A DNA stretch of 64,000 bases, from assembly GCA_965112155.1 (NCBI GenBank), contig OZ218103.1; one strand, written 5' to 3'. The notes below the pieces were generated by a model, which was not told the origin of the DNA, searched no databases, and saw only the letters and a program-made list of their open reading frames with translations. Origin of the DNA: Podarcis liolepis (Eukaryota). Position numbers and translations under genes: made by a program. How positions within the stretch are numbered: the first letter of the stretch is position 1; each line of letters begins with the position of its first letter. Positions 53,051 to 63,598 of this stretch are shown here, one piece after another.

Positions 53051-55304
53051 TTTTGTTGTCCTAACTATTCATAGAGCTATTAAACTAGGACTATCTAATA
53101 TCCATCCAAAATCATCTTAAGGGCCAAACCAAATGCAGTACCATTTACAATATTAGCAGATGTGTTTATATTTTTAAAGAATAAATAACAGGCCGCCTGC
53201 CAGGACGGTTCCAATCCAGATCATGGTCTTGATCTGCTGTTTGTATTGGAATAAAGCCCCCATTCACACTTATCATTTCAGAAACCTGGCTCAATAAATC
53301 ACGGGTGACAATAGTACAATTCCTTCTCCCTCTTCAGCACCAGTCTCTTAAATAGGAATCAGTACAGCCTCATGCTATCTCCTCCACTGCCACCACTAAC
53401 CTCTGACCTTTTTCCTTCCCTCTGTGCAACTTAAATGTTCAGTATAGCATTTAAAAAGCATGCCTCTTATGCTGTACATCTGTTATAGTAATAATTGTGT
53501 GGCAATTCAGAAGCTGAGAGTCTGCATCCGCCCACTCTCCATCTCATTAAGTATGAGGGTTTTTTATGCTTTCTCTAACCCAGGACCAGGGTGGGGGACC
53601 ATTGTCAATTGTCCTTCAGGTGTAGATATGTTGCAGTCAAGTAGACTATTAAGACTGCACAGCCTGACCCATGATATTTGCCCATGAAATACAAAGAGTC
53701 TTGCATGACTTGAGCTGTATGCCCTAGCTCATCCCTCTCTGCAGCCTGCTCACTACTGACTATTATGAGAACCCACATGGTATGCATTGCTTCAGATGGT
53801 TTCCTATAGGTGACTAAATTCAAAAGCCACAGGGAGCAGAACAAGGAAAAAGCAGCACTTACCTTGCAAACCTCAGCTTCAGAACTCCTGCTGTATCAAG
53901 CAAAGGTCTACTGTTGTGCCTTAGCTAATTTATACCAATTGGATACACCTGCTGGGGCTGCAGTGAAACAAGAAGCAATGTTATTGCAGGTGGAAAAGCA
54001 GCTGCCTTAGTCTCAGCAGGATTCTAGAAGACAGTGCTTTAGCTATTGCTCGTGTTATCAAAAGTCACCACCCAATATTCAATAGGTTTCTTTCTATTTA
54101 GCAACCTTATTTTTATGACCACCCATCAACATACATTACATTCTCTGTACAGCTTACAGAATGAAGAATACAATATTAATATGTAATGTGATTAAAGTGA
54201 AACAATTAAAACAGGTAAATGCAGCCTTTGAAAAATCTATTAGCAGCCTTAAAAAAAACCTATCGTTTGCAGCTGCAGCAAAGCCAGCAAGTGGAAGTGT
54301 GAGCAGGTTCAAACTCCTAGCTAAGCATTATCAGTTCTCTCTTCCAGTTTAGCTCATGCACTGAGAGATTAGCTATTAGTGAGCATGATTTGTATATGCA
54401 AAGTGGCACTTTGCATTCCAAACCACCTCACTGAAAAGCCACCTCCTGGTATGGAAAATTGGATGTGCCTTTCTGTTTAGCTGTTCTACTGTTACATTTA
54501 CACATAGATGTACTATTAGTTCCAAAAGCAAAACCTAATAACTGACAGTGCAATCATATGTTTATTCAATAGAGCGGATTCCTTGGTAGATGTGCAGAAG
54601 ACTGCAGCTTGGATGATTTTGTTAAGAGAGCAAGCATCTGAAAATTGTGAGTTTATTGGTACAGCTCACTCAGTTAAATAATTAATCATATGTTTTGTCA
54701 GCTCATCTATTATATTTGTATATGAGTAAAAACAATAGTTCTGAAGCAAACCCACCTACTTTTTTAGATGTATGACATCATTTTAGAAGAGACATTCTCT
54801 CCTGTCAGACTGAAAGCAGAAAATGTGCCCTAAGATTATGCTTGCCATTTACTGTTTTCAATAACTACACATATGTGTGTTTGTGTATTGATTTAATTCT
54901 GTTTAATTAATCACCCATTTCACCTAACTATTCCTTTGTCCTTTTCAAACTCTCCCTTGCACACAGACCACCTCACACCGCATCCTCCTCTCTCCTATTC
55001 CACAGCTCCCCTTGCACACACACCCAGTGATGATGTCTGTTACTGTATCTTTAATATTTATAGAATCTTAAGAGCAAGCCTGTCCATTAGCTTGTTCTGA
55101 GCTCATACAAGCATCCTAGAGCTGGTGTACTGAGCAGGCCTTGCCCCCCAAGCAAGTCAGAGAGCTTAAGAACTCGTTATACACAGGTTCCACTTGGGTT
55201 ACCTGGCGCATAAAGAGCTTTTGAGCTCTCTGCCTTGCTTGTGAGGAAAGGCCAGCTGTGCAATGCTTGTGTGAGTTCGCACGCGAACTCAGGTGGCTCT
55301 AGGT

Positions 55305-56329
55305 CAGTGTTTCCCAACCGGTGTTCCGCGGCACACTAGTGTGCCGCGAGACGTTGCCTGGTGTGCCGCGAGATGTTGCCTGGAGGGAGGCGGGCGAGTC
55401 GGGCGGCGAGAGGCGGGGCGGCGGCGGCGAGGAGAGGCCGCCCAGCGCGGGGCTCTCGCCGTCTGCCTGCCTGGCTGCCTGCGTGGCGCTGACGTCACGG
55501 GGCTGTAACATGCCCCACATAGGCACACGCGGGGTGGCGAGCGAGCGAGCTCCCACATCCCATCGCCGCTCGCTTCGGCCGGCCTACTGGGCTGTCGCAG
55601 GCAGACGGCGAGAGCCCCGCGCTGGGCGGCCTCTCCTCGCCGCCGCCGCCCCGCCGCCTGCGTGGCGCTGACGTCACGGGGCTGTAACATGCCCCACATA
55701 GGCACACGCGGGGTGGCGAGCGAGCGAGCTCCCACATCCCATCGCCGCTCGCTTCGGCCGGCCTACTGGGCTGTCGCAGGCGGAAGGCCTGCGCATGCGC
55801 GAGGTTTTCGTGCCTTCGGGATTCCCTTCACGCCTTCCTCCTCCCGGGTCCTTGAGAGCGCGGGAAGCGGCAGCGCGAGACCGGCGTTGAGCCTGGTAGG
55901 TATTGCGCTTGCCAAGGCAGTCATTTGGGAAATGAAAACTTGCAAAGCAAGCAACCAGTTCAATCTGAAGTACTTGTATGCTTAATATCCTGTATCTGAA
56001 ACCTGTTCTGCCCCCTCCCCCACACTTGGTGCCATTTTCATCTACACATGCAGCAGAGTAAGTTGACCCAGAATAGTACCAATTCAGATGGCAGATGGGA
56101 GAATGACAGTGCTGAATGCTTTCCCATGTAGAACAGTCCCTGCAAATAAAAACCTAGCATATTTGGAAGAGGGATGCTAGCCTAACCATTACCTTCTATG
56201 CTGTTACTATTTTTTTATTTTTTTTTACATAAGTAAAAAGTGACCTTTCCCCATCTGGCATGGTGGTGTGCCTCGAGATTTTTTTCATGAAACAAGTGTG
56301 CCTTTGCCCAAAAAGGTTGGGAAACACTG
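55305..56329. mobile_element. Non-autonomous hAT (Charlie-type) transposon with CpG-rich internal cargo
   Basis: Perfect 15-bp TIRs CAGTGTTTCCCAACC / GGTTGGGAAACACTG. Perfect 8-bp TSD CTCTAGGT (55297-55304, 56330-56337). Subterminal gtgtgcc motifs. No transposase ORF. Confidence 0.93.
55385..55905. promoter_or_regulatory. CpG-island-like, promoter-motif-rich segment inside the hAT element
   Basis: Very high GC and CpG content. TGACGTCA at 55490-55497 and 55669-55676, TGCGCATGCGC at 55790-55800, GCGGAAG at 55780-55786, GGGGCGG GC box near 55415. Function untested. Confidence 0.5.
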
Positions 56330-57158
56330 CTCTAGGTCTAGGATACTCATGCAAGATCTCACAGGCCCATCTGAATTCCTATGAGCTCTTGTAAGCACAC
56401 CCCAAAGCAGGAACACTGAAAAGGCCTTGCCACCCAAGCAAGGCAGAGAGTTTAAAAGCTCTTTATCCACCAAGTAACCTTAAGTGGACCTGGTGCAAAG
56501 AGAGCTTTTAAGGTCTCTAGCTTGCTTGAATTTAACTTGTGCAATTTCAACCAGCCTGCCTTCAACTGCATATAGCTGAAATTGCACAAAGTAAATGTGC
56601 CTAAGATGCAATTTTATTGTATTCTGCAGACTGAGATCAGGCAACCCTATTGAACAGAGTTGGCCATTTATTAGCTGCAGGCTGTCCAATGTGCATGGAC
56701 AGACAAGGTTTTCCTATCAACTATGCACACTAGGTATCCTCCAACACTACATTTCTACCCATCTGTAAAGCTAAGTTAACCATGACCTACTTCAAAGAAC
56801 TGCTGTGAAGATATATGGGATAACTATTATAAATTATTTGCCATACTAGACATATGATAATGTTTATCTACAGTTGGGATCTGCAACAAAACTGCAGTGT
56901 GGAGTGCATCTGTCTGGATTCTAGTCAGCCCCTCTCCAGTTTTCCATTTATTAAAAATCTCAGGAAATTATCCTTCTGTGGCCCCTGAGCTGTCCCCCCT
57001 TCTTACAGGGGGATTTACTCATTTAAGAAAAATATCTCTGAAAACCTTGTGTTTTCTCTGAGCCTGCTGATACTTCCCTCCTGTGTGTGGATGGTGCTGT
57101 TCTGGCTACATAAGAGTCTACACTGAGTTTGACATTAGAATATACTAGGATACCAGAC

Positions 57159-57903
57159 AGAAAGTAAGTAAGGCGTATTTAAAGAACCTTTTAATGAGGG
57201 TGAAAGAGGAGAGCACAAAATATGGTCTGAAGCTCAACATCAAAAAAACGAAGATCATGGCCACTGGGCCCATCACCTCCTGGCAAATAGAAGGGGAAGA
57301 AATGGAGGCAGTGAGAGATTTTACTTTCTTGGGCTCCATGATCACTGCAGATGGTGACAGCAGTCACGAAATTAAAAGACGCCTGCTCCTTGGGAGAAAG
57401 GCGATGGCAAACCTAGACAACACCTTAAAAAGCAGAGACATCACCTTGCCAACAAAGTAAAAGCCATGGTTTTCCCAGTAGTGATGTATGGAAGTGAGAG
57501 CTGGACCATAAAGAAGGCTGATCGCCGAAGAATTGATGCTTTTGAATTATGGTGCTGGAGGAGACTCTTAAGAGTCCCATGGACTGCAAGAAGATCAAAC
57601 GTATCCATTCTTAAGCAAATCAGCCCTGAGTGCTCACTGGAAGGACAGATCGTGAAGCTGAGGCTCCAATACTTTGGCCACCTCATGAGAAGAGAAGACT
57701 CTCTGGAAAAGACCCTGATGTTGGGAAAGATGGAGGGCACAAGGAGAAGGGGATGACAGAGGATGAGACGGTTAGACAGTGTTCTCGAAGCTACAAATAT
57801 GAGTCTGACCAAACTGCGGGAGGCAGTGGAAGACACGAGTGCCTGGCGTGCTCTGGTCCATGGGGTCACGAAGAGTCGGACACGACTAAACGACTACAAC
57901 AAC
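57159..57903 (+). mobile_element. Bov-B (RTE) LINE, 5'-truncated
   Basis: RVKEESTKYGLKLNIKKTKIMA...MVFPVVMYGSESWTIKKADRRRIDAFELWCWRRLLRVPWTARRSN...WRALVHGVTKSRTRLND with a caacaac tail. 12-bp TSD aggataccagac (57147-57158, 57904-57915). One frameshift and one stop. Confidence 0.93.
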
Positions 57904-59345
57904 AGGATACCAGACTGCCTGTCTGGTAGAATTAAACTGAGGAAGATGAGATTTGGTGACAAAATAAGTAACTCTGAGCTCTTGATAACCAAGTTTAGTT
58001 TCCATATTCCATATGTCCACTTCTTATTTCTCAGGAGTTTAGATGTTCTCCATTTTTTGCTAATTCCCACTTTATGTCTGCTCAGGTAAGGCAAGCAGCT
58101 GTGAGAGGAGGCATTTTACCTCACCTGCAAATTGGTCCCAGTGGGGCTCAGTGGATGCTAGATTTTGTTCTGCACTCTGGGCGCACAGCACTAGTGCAGG
58201 TAATCAGAAACAAATCAAGCTAAATATACTCCCATCAGGGGAAGTTATGGTACTCCCACCCAGTATCCAGAGTTACTGCAGTATATGGGAATAATCCCAC
58301 AATAATCAGTATGTGTAATGGATCACTTAAGTGGGCAAGATTGAAAGTGCTCAGAATGAAAGTGCTCCCCCATTTTATGTATGTCTTGAGAGGAATTTCT
58401 CAGTACTTTTCACAACAATATTCTAAATGAATCAATATTTTGTAAGGTTCTCAATGGCTTCCTCCCCTCAGCTATCCCTCCAAATAATGCAGTTACCAAC
58501 AGATGAAGCGGGGGTATTGGTGTTGTATTTCCTTATCTGGAACTGCACCAGAGAGTACACCTGTTGGTGGGCACTCAATTGCTACAGGGATTTGCCATTT
58601 TTAATCTTTTTATGTGCTCTCTTACTAAGGTGTCCTCAGATCTAAGCACAGCCAGGGAGGGCTGGCACCCTACTGTTCATCTTAGCTGCATGAAAAGTCT
58701 TGGGACAGATTAACAATGACATTTTATGCACGCCCTGGGGCAACCCTTGTTTAAAAATTTGAAGTTGTACATTTATCTGGGCAGGGGTAGAGCGCTGGTC
58801 AAGTTAAACCAGTTAACTGATATTGTGTCCTCTTTTCAGATCTGAGGAAAAACTGTAGCTTATTGATAACCACAAATTGGCAAAGCATTCAGTTGCACAA
58901 CCTCCTGATTTTTGTATTTGGCCCTGCGGTCCTTAAAACATCTGAATCTTCTACTGCGTTGGGAACCGAAGTCCACCATTCTGCATCTGTAAAGTGGTCT
59001 CCAACAGAAATAGGAGTATGAGGCTTCTCTTCTGTCTGCCAGAATACCTGATAATGTTTTACTGATTGCATTACCTGGGCAGTCTGACCATTCTTTTGAG
59101 ATGGTAAATACTTTAGTTCTTGTATCTAGGTCACTGGCCCACCCTATTCATACATAAATATGCCCTTAAGGCAAGATTTGAAAACGAAAGAACTATTGGG
59201 GAAGTGTTCTCCAAGATATCTCCTTTTGTAGAGGAAATATTTGGAGTAATGAGGAGAGCCAGAGATGGCTTTTTGTGATTGTTCTGTGTGCTAAAATAAT
59301 GTGTAATTTTCTCAGGGAATATTTCCTAAATTTTGATGGATGAAG

Positions 59346-59494: not shown

Positions 59495-60729
59495 AGGTCA
59501 ATCTTCTGACTTGAAATTGGGTGTCCCAATTTCAAGGCTTTGTTCCCCTCTCACAGTGCTGCCCTGGCAGTGAGTGAGAGTGGCAACAGCAGATCACAGA
59601 GGCCACGCAGGGCCTGAGACTTACCTGCCATCCACGCAGTGGATTGGACTCTCCAAGGTTGGTTCTTTGGATCAGATCTGCATGAATTTTGCCTCTCTTC
59701 CCCTCGCAGTTTGGTGATCTGCAAGCTTGATGGTCTGGCCTGATGATGTCATTCACCAGGGCACCTTTCAGAGAGAGGGGGGGCAGGGATTAAAAGGGCT
59801 ACAGTGCAGATTGGAGCTGGCAACAGCAATGGTTGAGTCCTGAGCAACTAGCAAGATGGATAAGAGGGCAGAGGGAAAGGGAACGAGGGCTGATGCCTAG
59901 TGCTAGGGTCTCATCCGGTTATGTGTGAGGTAATGAAGAGATGGCAGTAGTACCTCTGAGCATGTACTGAGTAAGTGTGCACCTATTTCCTCCACCACCC
60001 TTTCCCCCCAGTCAGAAACACCTTGCATTCCTCAGATGAAAATGTCCTGATTTTCATCTGAGTGATGTTGGAAGGTATGAATTATTAGTGTTTTATTACT
60101 TCCTTTTCTCTCCATCTCCTAGCTATCACTCTGCCCAAGCCTTTTGTATTCAAACATTTCCCTGATACATCTGGGCCTCCATTTCACCCTCCCATATCCC
60201 TAAAAACACTCTTATACAGCAACAGTAGCCCCCCTCCATCTAGCCCTGCCACTATAATGAAGTGTAAGCTACAGACCCAGGCCTCAGGCATTGGTTGCCA
60301 TAGGGAGCATGTGTTTGTGAAACATGTGAATGGAGACATGTGCACTAGGAAAAATATATTCCCAGCCCTTCCAAATGCTCTATTATTCTCATGCTGAATT
60401 GAGACCTGACCAAGGGTCAATTCTCATATAATGAGTGTGGCACCATTGCTGCTTCCCATACCACTTTAACACAGGCAGGACATGCTAAAACAGGCTAATA
60501 CTGTCGGGTGTGCGTGCAGGAGCCAGGCCCTGTGACCAATAGGACTCTGCAGGACTGGAGCCTTCCTAAGTTTGTTCTGAAGAGGCAAGGCACGGCGACA
60601 GGAACCGTTCACAGGTTGGATACTAGCCCGGTGCCTTTGGGACTGGGGGGTGCGCCGCTTGATGTCCGGGATGGGTGTATCATCGCAGCCGGCTCTAAAT
60701 TCCAGAGGGGCTGCTCCGAACCCAGGTCC

Positions 60730-62248
60730 TTGAGCAGTGCCATGATATGTGAACTGCCGGACATGGGGGATACGCGAAGACACTGCAGCTATTGGCCTGA
60801 GCTTTCTGGTGGCCAGGGGTTCACGCGGACATTAAGAAGTACGTGCGGTCCTGTGAGACTTTTGATCGGACCAAGGTGCCACGGCAGAGACCCTTGGGGC
60901 TTCTCCAGCCATTACCCACCCCCCACAGGCCATGGTCAACACTTTCTATGGACTTCATCATGGACCTCCCTGTGTCCAAAGGACAGTTGGTCATTCTGGT
61001 GGTGGTGGATTCACTCACCAAGATGGCACACTTCATCCCAGCTCGAAGCCTCCCCACAGCGCAACAGACAGCCCACTTGTTTCTTGAACCCATGTTCCGG
61101 CTACATGGGCTCCCGGATGCAGTGATCTCCGATAGGGGTCCCCAGTTCATGTCCCGGTTCTGGGCGGCCTTCCTCAAGGGACTGAGTATTGAGAGGCGCC
61201 TCTCTTCCACATACCACCCTGAAACACATGGCCAGACGGAGAGGGTTAATCAAGTCCTGGAGCAATATCTCCACTGGTTCCTGAGCTACCATCAGGATGA
61301 TTGGATGGACCTTCTGCCACTGGCTGAGTTTGCCTATACAGTGGTGCCCCGCAAGACGAATGCCTCGCAAGACGGAAAACTCGCTAGACAAAAGAGTTTT
61401 CCGTTTTGGAGGTGCTTCGCAAAACGAATCTCCTATGAGCTTGCTTCGCAAGACGAAAATGTCTTGCGAGTTCCTGCGGTTTTTTCCCCCCTCCCCCCCT
61501 TTTTCTAAGCCGCTAAGCCGCTTATCAGCTGATCCGATAAGCCGATAAGCCGCTAAAAGCACTAATAGCGCTAATCCGTCAATGGGCTTGCTTCGCAAGA
61601 CGAAAAAACCGCTAGACGAAGAGAATCACAGAACAGATTCTTTTCGTCTTGCGAGGCACTATTGTAACAACACCTGCCATGCCTCCACGGGACAGAGCCC
61701 TTTCTACGCTAACTACCGGCGGCGTCTCTTGTGCCTTCCGCCAATGATCGGGTCTCCCACATCCAGGAAACACAAGCTGACCTGATACGGCACCTATCGA
61801 GAGCCAAGGCAGATTATAAGGCGCAAATGGATTGACCGCGCCAGCAGGGGCCTGCGTTCCAGGTTGGGGACAAGGTCTGGCTGTCGTTGGAGCACCAACA
61901 CACTGGACATCCATTGGCTAAGGTGGACCAGGGACCATTCACCACCCTGCAGCAGATCAATCCGGTCGCCTACAAGTTGGAGCTTCCCCCCTCCCTGAAG
62001 ATCCACCCAGTGTTTCACGTATCCCAGCTGAAGCATTGCCCCACCGCCAGTCCAGGTTGGCGGCCATGATGAGTTCCAGGTTGCCCAGATTCTGGACTCG
62101 AAATGGCTCCGTTGCAAGCTCTAATGTCTAATTGACTGGGTGGGCTACGGGCCAGAGGAACGATCGTGGGAGCCGGCAGACTTCGTGCACACGCCCACCA
62201 AAGTACGGGCCTTCCATCGGAGGTTCCCAGACAAGCCTGGGCCATGAC
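60730..62248 (+). pseudogene. Degenerate Gypsy integrase with GPY/F motif and chromodomain
   Basis: Zinc-binding remnant (CHD...AGHGG...YVRSCET), DDE core (LSMDFIMDL, VISDRGPQF, GQTERVNQVLEQYL), GPF...YKLELPPSLKIHPVFHVSQLK, and chromodomain ILDS...[16 protein letters not shown]...[11 protein letters not shown]. Disrupted by stops, frameshifts and a MITE insertion. Confidence 0.9.
61339..61664. mobile_element. Tc1/mariner (Tigger-like) MITE nested in the integrase
   Basis: 22-bp TIRs cagtggtgccccgcaagacgaa / ttcgtcttgcgaggcactattg with TA duplicated; removing it restores EFAYNNTCHASTGQSPFYANY. Confidence 0.92.
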
Positions 62249-62285
62249 CAGGGATGGAACCCCATTTTCCTATGGGGGGGAGTAC

Positions 62286-62715
62286 TGTCAGGTGTGCGTG
62301 CAAGAGCCAGGCCCTGTGACAATAGGACTCTGCAGGACTGGGGCCTTCCTAAGTTTGTTCTGAAGAGGCAAGGCGCGGCCACACAGGTGAGGCCAATTGG
62401 TAACTCACAACACCTGGTGGCAAGAGCAGGGAAGGGATATAAGGTCAGCATTTTCCCTTCAGCTCTTTGCCACAACAACACGTTTCCTGCCTTTCTGCGT
62501 TTGACTCCTTGACTCTCAGACCCTTGACTTCATGACTCCTTGCTTCCTGACCGTTGGACCCTTGGCTTCTTGACTCCTGGATCTCTAACCCTCGGAATCT
62601 AGGTTTTCTGACTCCTGTCTTCTGGATTCCCGTTCCTGCTCCCACCCCGCTATCTTGCCCCCGGTCCCAACATCCCCAGCCAGGACTTCGATCGCCCGTG
62701 AACCGGACCGTGACA
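62286..62715 (+). repeat. 3' LTR (430 bp)
   Basis: TGTCA...TGACA ends; first ~95 bp nearly identical to 60502-60600; TATA-like gatataag near 62436. Confidence 0.9.
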
Positions 62716-62989
62716 AATACCATAAAATTGGCTTTTGGGTGTTCTGCCCCAGAGTCTTACCAGGTAATAACTCACAGAACCTCTCTATCTGCTTAGGAAT
62801 TTTTCAGATGTAACTTCTACATCCCTGCTCTTCGCAAAATACTATCTTCCTTACACTTTCCATCTCCTATGGAACAGCACAAACATCCTGCTTGTTTAAG
62901 TAGGCAGGAGAGGAGAATGGGTGCAAGAGCCAGGGGAAGAATGGGATGGTAAATCTGCATTCCCCTTGTGGTTGAAGGAGAAAGAAGAG

Positions 62990-63598
62990 TATTCTAGACC
63001 CTCCAAGTGTCCCTATTTTCCAGGGACAGTCCCGCATTTACAGAAGTCATCCTGGTTTCTGATTTTATCCCTGAATGTTCCACTTTTCCTTAGGATGTCC
63101 CTATTTTAATCGGATAAATGTTGGCAGCTATGGAGTTATGCAACCCCCCAAGCCAAGAAGATAAGTAACTATACAGCTTTTAGAAGATATTGGAAGGCAG
63201 CCATGTATAGGGAAGTTCTTAACCTGAGGTACCACTTTAGTTAATGGGGCCTCCCGCTACCGCCGTGCGATTTCTGTTCTCATCCCGAAGCAAAGTTCTT
63301 AACCCAAGGTACTATTTCTGGGTTAGCAGAGTCTGTAACCTGAAGCATCTGTAACCCAAGACCTCAGTTTAAGAACAGCCCTGTTTACAAACTATTCAGT
63401 TTACGAACTCCACAAAACCGGAAGTAGTGTCCCAGTTTGCAAACTTTACCTTGGTGTAAGAATGGAAGCCGAAGGGTGGAAGGGCACTGGTGGCGGGAGG
63501 CCACATTAGGGAAAGCGCACCTCTGTTTAAGAACGGGTTCGGTTTAAGAGCAGACTTCTGGAACGGATTGTTTGTAAACCAAGGTACTTTACCACTGT
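62990..63598. mobile_element. Cluster of DNA-transposon/MITE fragments
   Basis: 63214-63360 is the reverse complement of part of the 46902/48489 MITE family. 63361-63598 ends in accactg-ta. 62990-63135 resembles 51057-51247. Confidence 0.65.

Follow-up and report, generated by a model that had tools for sequence, protein, structure and literature searches.

The element found at positions 55305-56329 of the window, as we call the whole analysed stretch of Podarcis liolepis DNA (64,000 nucleotides, C6:50220001-50284000 of the 1.57-Gb genome), is very probably a young non-autonomous hAT transposon of Buster type, the interior of which derives from four host loci including the likely promoter of TFDP1 read backwards, so that the joined pieces would form a unit of start site, exon and splice donor, yielding spliced RNA in some members of the family and likely driving the transposase of the parental elements.

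Both borders of this element are exactly as described in an earlier note on this DNA. Its 15-bp terminal inverted repeats (TIRs, 55305-55319 and 56315-56329) are perfect, and so is the 8-bp target site duplication (TSD) CTCTAGGT, which lies on the plus strand at 55297-55304 and 56330-56337. The duplication is of nnnTAnnn type, a pattern taken from 45 insertions of this and sibling families, with T at position 4 in 44 of them and A at position 5 in all 45. The left transposon end (55305-55384, plus strand) is composed of the TIR and subterminal repeats and is the same as in cargo-less relatives, with an additional 11-bp repeat in the window copy. The right end with its TIR (56260-56329, plus strand) is identical to that of transposase-bearing parents. 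A tyrosine-phosphatase gene (detected by Pfam), which we take to be PTPRF, ends upstream of the element, and KDM4A, expected next in the earlier note, starts ~19 kb downstream of it on the same strand. The insertion is flanked by diverged (~75%) palindromic units at 55098-55257 and 56382-56528, probably an older repeat that it interrupted. Between KDM4A and the element, 60499-63000 is rich in CpG and contains integrase-like open frames; as we assume from its motifs, it is probably an LTR element of Gypsy type, and 57149-58086 presumably represents a fragment of a LINE-type reverse transcriptase frame.

The CpG-rich interior stands out from its CpG-poor background as sharply as had been supposed: the segment 55385-55895 is 74% GC and contains 71 CpG, with an observed/expected ratio of 1.03 vs 0.20 in the remaining window. 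All motifs named in the earlier note were found in their places, that is, the CRE palindrome TGACGTCA at 55490 and 55669, the ETS-type CGGAAG at 55781, the NRF1-type motif at 55790 and the donor-like CTG/GTAGGT with its GT at 55896. In 5000 dinucleotide shuffles of the CpG part of the family, CRE (p 0.0004) and the NRF1-type motif (p 0.004) were above chance and GC boxes weakly so (p 0.03), while E2F-type (p 0.07) and ETS-type (p 0.28) sites showed no excess, all these patterns being picked after they had been seen in the sequence. Two CREs had been ascribed to the cargo. Both are present, but the second one exists because of a duplication-inversion rearrangement specific to this copy, and 19 of 19 other aligned copies have one CRE each. 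The 179 extra bp of the window copy form a duplication-inversion-duplication, in which an incomplete first copy of the TFDP1-derived piece, bearing the extra CRE at 55490 (55486-55608, plus strand), is followed by a perfect inverted 59-bp copy of 55412-55470 (55597-55655, minus strand) placed between the duplicated units, as is characteristic of template switching. The inversion junction occurs once in the genome, and the whole rearrangement looks like a small template switch.

Except for ~15 bp, the interior is a mosaic of four single host loci on C6, C4, C5 and C2, which are devoid of TIRs and 93-99% identical to the corresponding pieces; each was the single locus in its own search (best 40 candidates scored per DNA search). 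Consensus positions 85-114 and 116-170 derive from a host CpG island at C6:97.157 Mb and are present in the window copy as an inverted 30-bp piece (55400-55429, minus strand, 28/30 identical) and a 55-bp piece (55431-55485, plus strand, 53/55 identical), the latter having the same sense as the first exon predicted at that donor. Further on lies a 229-bp piece of the TFDP1 5' CpG island (55665-55893, plus strand, consensus 171-399), which runs antisense to TFDP1 and matches C4:28669399-28669644 at 225 of 229 positions (98%) with deletions of 16 bp and 1 bp; it contains the CRE at 55669, the ETS-type site at 55781, the NRF1-type site at 55790 and an E2F-type site at 55806. The adjoining 32 bp (55893-55924, plus strand, consensus 399-430) are 31/32 identical to a locus at C5:60.6476 Mb and include the splice donor, the only change from this locus, C to T, being the one that creates the GT at 55896 used by the reads described below. 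The 340-bp AT-rich filler (55922-56262, plus strand, consensus 428-768) is 338/341 identical to C2:104376218-104376616 with a 55-bp internal deletion. Raw overlaps at three joints are 1 bp, CAT and ATG. No clear coding exon was revealed at the C6, C5 and C2 donors by ORF and exon scans. The C2 donor was found with a pattern that excluded the family junction, and family copies alone were obtained when the AT-rich part itself was used in a plain DNA search (best 40 of 608 candidates). For the left CpG segment a pattern of that kind gave no match, and the C6 donor was reached with a second pattern, by way of an older sibling family. Capture of host sequence, suspected earlier, can be regarded as almost certain, and the donor loci dispose of the opposite case considered in the earlier note, an interior that is simply a hAT consensus with no donor outside transposons. 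The idea that promoter, first exon and beginning of an intron were taken as one unit from one gene is not supported, since three loci contributed to them and the TFDP1 piece runs antisense to its gene.

The C4 donor is a CpG island located 2.3 kb upstream of the ATG exon of TFDP1 (MAKD), which is on the opposite strand. The plus-strand exons that come after the MAKD exon match residues 5 to 238 of DP-1 (PDB 2aze_A; Pfam DP). The TFDP1 locus is adjoined by a DCN1-like gene. A further exon had no Pfam match, and we take it to be TMCO3-like, assuming also the human gene order. A GTAAGT donor 30 bp past the C4 piece forms the end of the predicted first exon of TFDP1, and judging by position and this donor the island is predicted to contain the TFDP1 start site.

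The number of copies in the genome is ~400, ranging from 395 for the family-specific junction to 409 for the donor motif in exact pattern counts, and a typical copy is 836 bp long. Forty of 40 scored candidates (best 40 of 2060 first-look candidates) match the element at 98-100%. Perfect TSDs were registered in 18 of 19 top-hit copies and in 18 of 20 consecutive copies on C1, and the dispersal proposed earlier is borne out by ~400 copies with distinct TSDs. Divergence from the family consensus at non-CpG positions is 0.34%. It is well known that methylated CpG is biased towards deamination. In 19 of the 20 C1 copies, leaving out one variant copy of 1229 bp and three columns that differ in a subfamily, transitions were counted at 82 of 2150 CpG sites (3.81%) vs 15 of 6726 other G/C sites (0.22%), which corresponds to an odds ratio of 17.7 (p 3e-36). 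With the variant copy and columns included the values were 3.86% vs 0.28%, and the top-hit copies gave 55/2139 vs 10/6775. This ~17-fold decay means that intact CpGs reflect youth and not protection. Thus, of the two explanations offered earlier, recent insertion and protection from methylation, the first is retained and the second is rejected, and the family does not show the protected CpGs of an unmethylated CpG-island promoter. Based on these substitutions one can assume that the family is very young and undergoes germ-line methylation. The window copy has three CpG transitions, which is ordinary for the family, and one of them breaks the E2F-type site at 55806. At C1:120.01 Mb (L133:471-2124) a family copy and a derivative of the type B parents described below stand head to tail with the same TSD present three times, which is an insertion into an existing TSD.

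A search for the transposase revealed three architectures, designated types 0, A and B. Type 0, represented by one complete but interrupted copy, one partial copy and 11 examined deletion derivatives, has no CpG cargo and carries a 222-bp block with TATA-like TATAAATA 59 bp before the ATG. The block is present in two of two long cargo-less elements vs none of nine A and B parents, and its lack in the latter suggests a promoter swap. Type A (3 copies) starts with the 430 bp that also head the 836-bp family. These are continued by DNA of the C5 locus (1.1 kb), a remnant of the left end (35 bp) and another 210 bp from upstream of TFDP1, in which a polypyrimidine-AG acceptor is located, and the ORF comes last; at C15:44.84 Mb (L040) a 613-bp sibling element in opposite orientation interrupts one type A transposase. 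Type B (6 copies, L043-L048) has an intact 626-aa ORF, perfect TSDs and a right end identical to that of the family. The pair of type B elements that was compared differed by 0.5% or less, and by these features all six full-length elements are likely still active. They are headed by a different CpG module with rearranged TFDP1 fragments and a donor from a TIR-less C17 locus. The acceptor is common to types A and B, and ORFs of 625-626 aa stand behind this TFDP1-derived acceptor in all three type A and six type B copies. Single nnnTAnnn sites, with a remnant left TIR behind them, terminate both the C5 and the C2 pieces in parents, which would be expected if these pieces had been copied from DNA beside earlier insertions.

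The transposase has a BED-type finger, ZBED5/SCAND3-like homologues, and D-D-E and RW motifs, for which we assume catalytic roles. Its identity is 98% with a Podarcis muralis entry, 85% with a Xenopus laevis protein and ~80% with fish proteins, a patchy distribution of relatives which would be typical of horizontal transfer. Three residues (445, 447 and 489) are the same in the cargo-less copy as in fish and amphibian relatives, types A and B having another residue in common; in the transposase tree types 0 and A stand in an unresolved fork, and the cargo-less copy was not placed. For one type B frame (L044:4897-6774) relatives with 80-93% identity were noticed in frogs, fish, a snake, a tunicate and a spider, which suggests repeated horizontal transfer. 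At least four further non-autonomous sibling families (L087-L094; L040:5592-6204; L141-L145; L146-L154) have the same ends and other CpG-rich cargo; one of them, with 391 copies, carries the end of predicted TFDP1 exon 1, and another carries TFDP1 intron 1. Another sibling, located 23 kb from the TFDP1 donor at C4:28645701-28646940 (L067:1701-2940), shares these ends, is flanked by the TSD GTATAGCA and contains in antisense ~750 bp from a coding exon of ARHGEF33, with open frame and 95% identity to a Podarcis entry. The TFDP1 piece as such recurs across several amplified sibling families.

These relatives bear upon two other ways to account for the CpG-rich interior. Since 98% identity alone gives no direction and the comparison was made within one genome without an outgroup, one could suppose that the C4 island at TFDP1 is itself a transposon remnant adopted by the host. 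We consider this highly improbable. Neither TIR nor TSD was found within 10 kb around the C4 locus, where sub-pieces distributed singly, and in shorter form, among four different element families make up one continuous run; cargo-less relatives exist and have kept ancestral residues, and the sibling cargo includes the conserved ARHGEF33 coding exon, necessarily derived from the host. That the CpG island is a native promoter of the transposon without any host donor is hardly tenable at all. The same 430 bp do head transposase-bearing parents, but cargo-less elements have no CpG island, and the TIR-less donors, available for all interior segments except the ~15 bp, refute it.

Four raw-read RNA runs with the same species label were aligned to typical copy L010, positions being transferred from it to the window; the source animal may differ from the sequenced one, and the reads are assignable to the family rather than to a locus. 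Evidence for starts and splicing came from one run of the four, the single-cell run X21 (253 reads aligned, ~6% of the run sampled). In seven of its reads the Smart-seq3 tag (sequence as given in the accessible text of PMC9546772), 8 letters and GGG precede element position 360, which is 55854 in the window. No GGG stands before the start base in the element, an argument against strand invasion. Exactly at the predicted donor CTG/GT, 42 nt after the start, 29 reads are spliced, thereby delimiting at the family level a 42-nt first exon (55854-55895 of the window, plus strand, donor at 55895/55896) and showing that the donor noticed earlier at 55896 is in use. Eighteen of the 29 continue from the acceptor that precedes the transposase in type A parents and is also present at the TFDP1 upstream locus. 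Four genomic matches (three type A elements and the TFDP1 upstream locus), each with a one-base difference, were obtained for the 30 letters that follow the donor, and at the position of the GT used by the reads the three type A parents of the reference show GC or another context. The other 11 of the 29 continue into DCTPP1 exon 2 (L026, C14:17.28 Mb), which holds an ATG and was identified by a PDB match, with no Pfam match for the exon. Both continuations begin at genomic AG acceptors. No element copy was found in the reference from 150 kb upstream to 30 kb downstream of DCTPP1 exon 2, which is a candidate locus of polymorphic insertion, and the source loci of the reads are probably alleles missing from the reference. 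In two bulk runs the depth was flat (~5-25) on both strands across the donor, with no such loose end among the entries listed and no site where many molecules begin. Taken together, the single-cell reads make promoter activity in some members of the family probable.

One may object that the captured DNA is an inert passenger, so that nearly all copies are methylated and silent, the reads come from one or two stray insertions, and the transposase is made in some other way. Such an explanation is possible but not likely. It agrees with the excess of transitions at CpG (82/2150 vs 15/6726 other G/C sites), with the bulk RNA devoid of exon-shaped depth, and with the fact that type B, having the intact ORF and perfect TSDs, holds only rearranged fragments of the TFDP1 promoter; it would leave unexplained why start, donor and acceptor coincide exactly with joints of the mosaic, why the TATA-like block is missing from the A and B parents, and why the TFDP1 piece was retained in several amplified sibling families. 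A narrower doubt concerns the DCTPP1 chimera, which might be a product of trans-splicing or a library artefact instead of a cis insertion acting as a new promoter. The reference has no element copy within 150 kb upstream, there are 11 reads from one run, and the end of the element exon has seven letters in common with the beginning of the DCTPP1 exon. However, the reads retain both copies of the shared letters, as in splicing and unlike a homology-driven switch, the junction joins a true donor to a true acceptor, and a family so young (0.34% non-CpG divergence) is expected to be polymorphic. Trans-splicing or an artefact appears rather unlikely. For the preferred reading, in which the captured unit is functional, we see the chances that it drives the transposase in the parents as evenly balanced, and activity of the window copy itself as quite improbable.

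The most complete scenario is put forward tentatively, with a little less than even confidence. A recent hAT element would have swapped its TATA-type promoter for the CpG promoter of TFDP1 turned backwards, built an exon and an intron from flanks of old insertions, and placed its transposase under a host promoter of proliferation type, while ~400 offspring would spread the cassette, some of them producing full-length host mRNAs such as that of DCTPP1. In the preferred reading as such, the pieces were most likely gained one after another in the course of repair of broken elements with repeated template switching, a process proposed for Pack-TIRs in the accessible part of PMC8277862. DNA of the C6 and TFDP1 islands would have come first; flank DNA of C5 could then have split the TFDP1 piece and supplied the donor, some pieces being presumably taken from DNA adjacent to former insertion sites, and TFDP1 upstream DNA would provide the acceptor before the transposase. 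CpG-island promoters are known to fire in both directions, and owing to this an antisense piece gives a start site that faces the transposase. The TFDP1 island may accordingly be seen as a divergent promoter, of which the element would use the upstream-antisense direction. In parents of types A and B the TATA-like block was probably lost and the captured module took its place. The 836-bp family may have originated from a type A parent by replacement of the stretch between the donor and the right end with the C2 filler, which would have kept promoter, exon and donor, removed acceptor and ORF, and left amplification to intact parents. Having no acceptor of its own, such an element would act as an exon trap for a downstream gene, and KDM4A, which is correctly oriented for this, is the predicted target of the window copy. 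Most copies, probably including the window copy, may be methylated and quiet, a few of them serving as mobile promoters or exon traps.

With several families of ~400 copies, traceable donors, intermediates and intact parents, the order of captures can be read directly. If the captured module does drive the parental transposase, this would answer the question of how a DNA transposon gains a working promoter in a new host. The ~400 young and probably polymorphic promoter-donor cassettes also represent a testable source of expression differences between individual lizards.

The mostly open literature yielded no earlier description of this element, nor of a captured host promoter that drives a transposase, and the supplement of PMC8277862 may list lizard cases. 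By the features tested the element is a member of both Buster hATs and Pack-TIRs, and it appears to work like HelibatN3, being no member of that group. Plant Pack-MULEs and Pack-TYPE elements are non-autonomous TIR elements in which GC-rich host fragments of several loci are combined, and the present one is like them in this mosaic structure and unlike them in its vertebrate host and hAT superfamily. For Buster hATs, the accessible text of PMC3517528 gives the TSD consensus nnnTAnnn. The element shares with them 8-bp TSDs with central TA, short TIRs, and an autonomous partner (6 copies) with the same ends and a 626-aa hAT transposase with BED-type finger; it differs in the spliced host-derived 5' module before the ORF and in the remnant inner TIRs.

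As a Pack-TIR it has host sequence between TIRs with parental loci, and distinct TSDs. In the accessible part of Tan et al. 2021 (PMC8277862), high-copy Pack-TIRs are reported as very rare in animals, with 4 multicopy cases (1.4%) for 100 genomes, one of them being Pack-hAT-N8_XT of Xenopus tropicalis, for which a single donor and 3 copies are given. These multicopy cases and the element studied have in common the hAT ends and TSDs enclosing host DNA, identifiable parental loci and capture of 5' gene regions. By the same text, chimeric transcripts and microhomology at joints occur in the former; their candidate counterparts here are the reads to DCTPP1 exon 2 and the overlaps of 1, 3 and 3 bp. 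Unlike the Pack-TIRs described there, it has ~400 copies, four donors on four contigs and sibling families of similar size, and its module is also present in transposase-bearing parents. HelibatN3 of Myotis bats carries, according to the accessible text of Thomas et al. 2014 (PMC4224331) and Grabundzija et al. 2016 (PMC4778049), a captured host promoter, first exon and donor in a thousand copies. It is a Helitron with promoter, exon and donor of one gene in sense, while here we deal with a cut-and-paste hAT having TIRs and TSDs, a promoter antisense to TFDP1, a donor from the C5 locus, and a module standing apparently before its own transposase; transcripts from the element to a host exon are represented by 11 reads to DCTPP1 exon 2 in one run, with the source insertion missing from the reference. 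What unites the two systems, as far as those texts go, is an amplified captured unit of promoter, exon and donor, which in the present element too may splice into downstream exons of the host.
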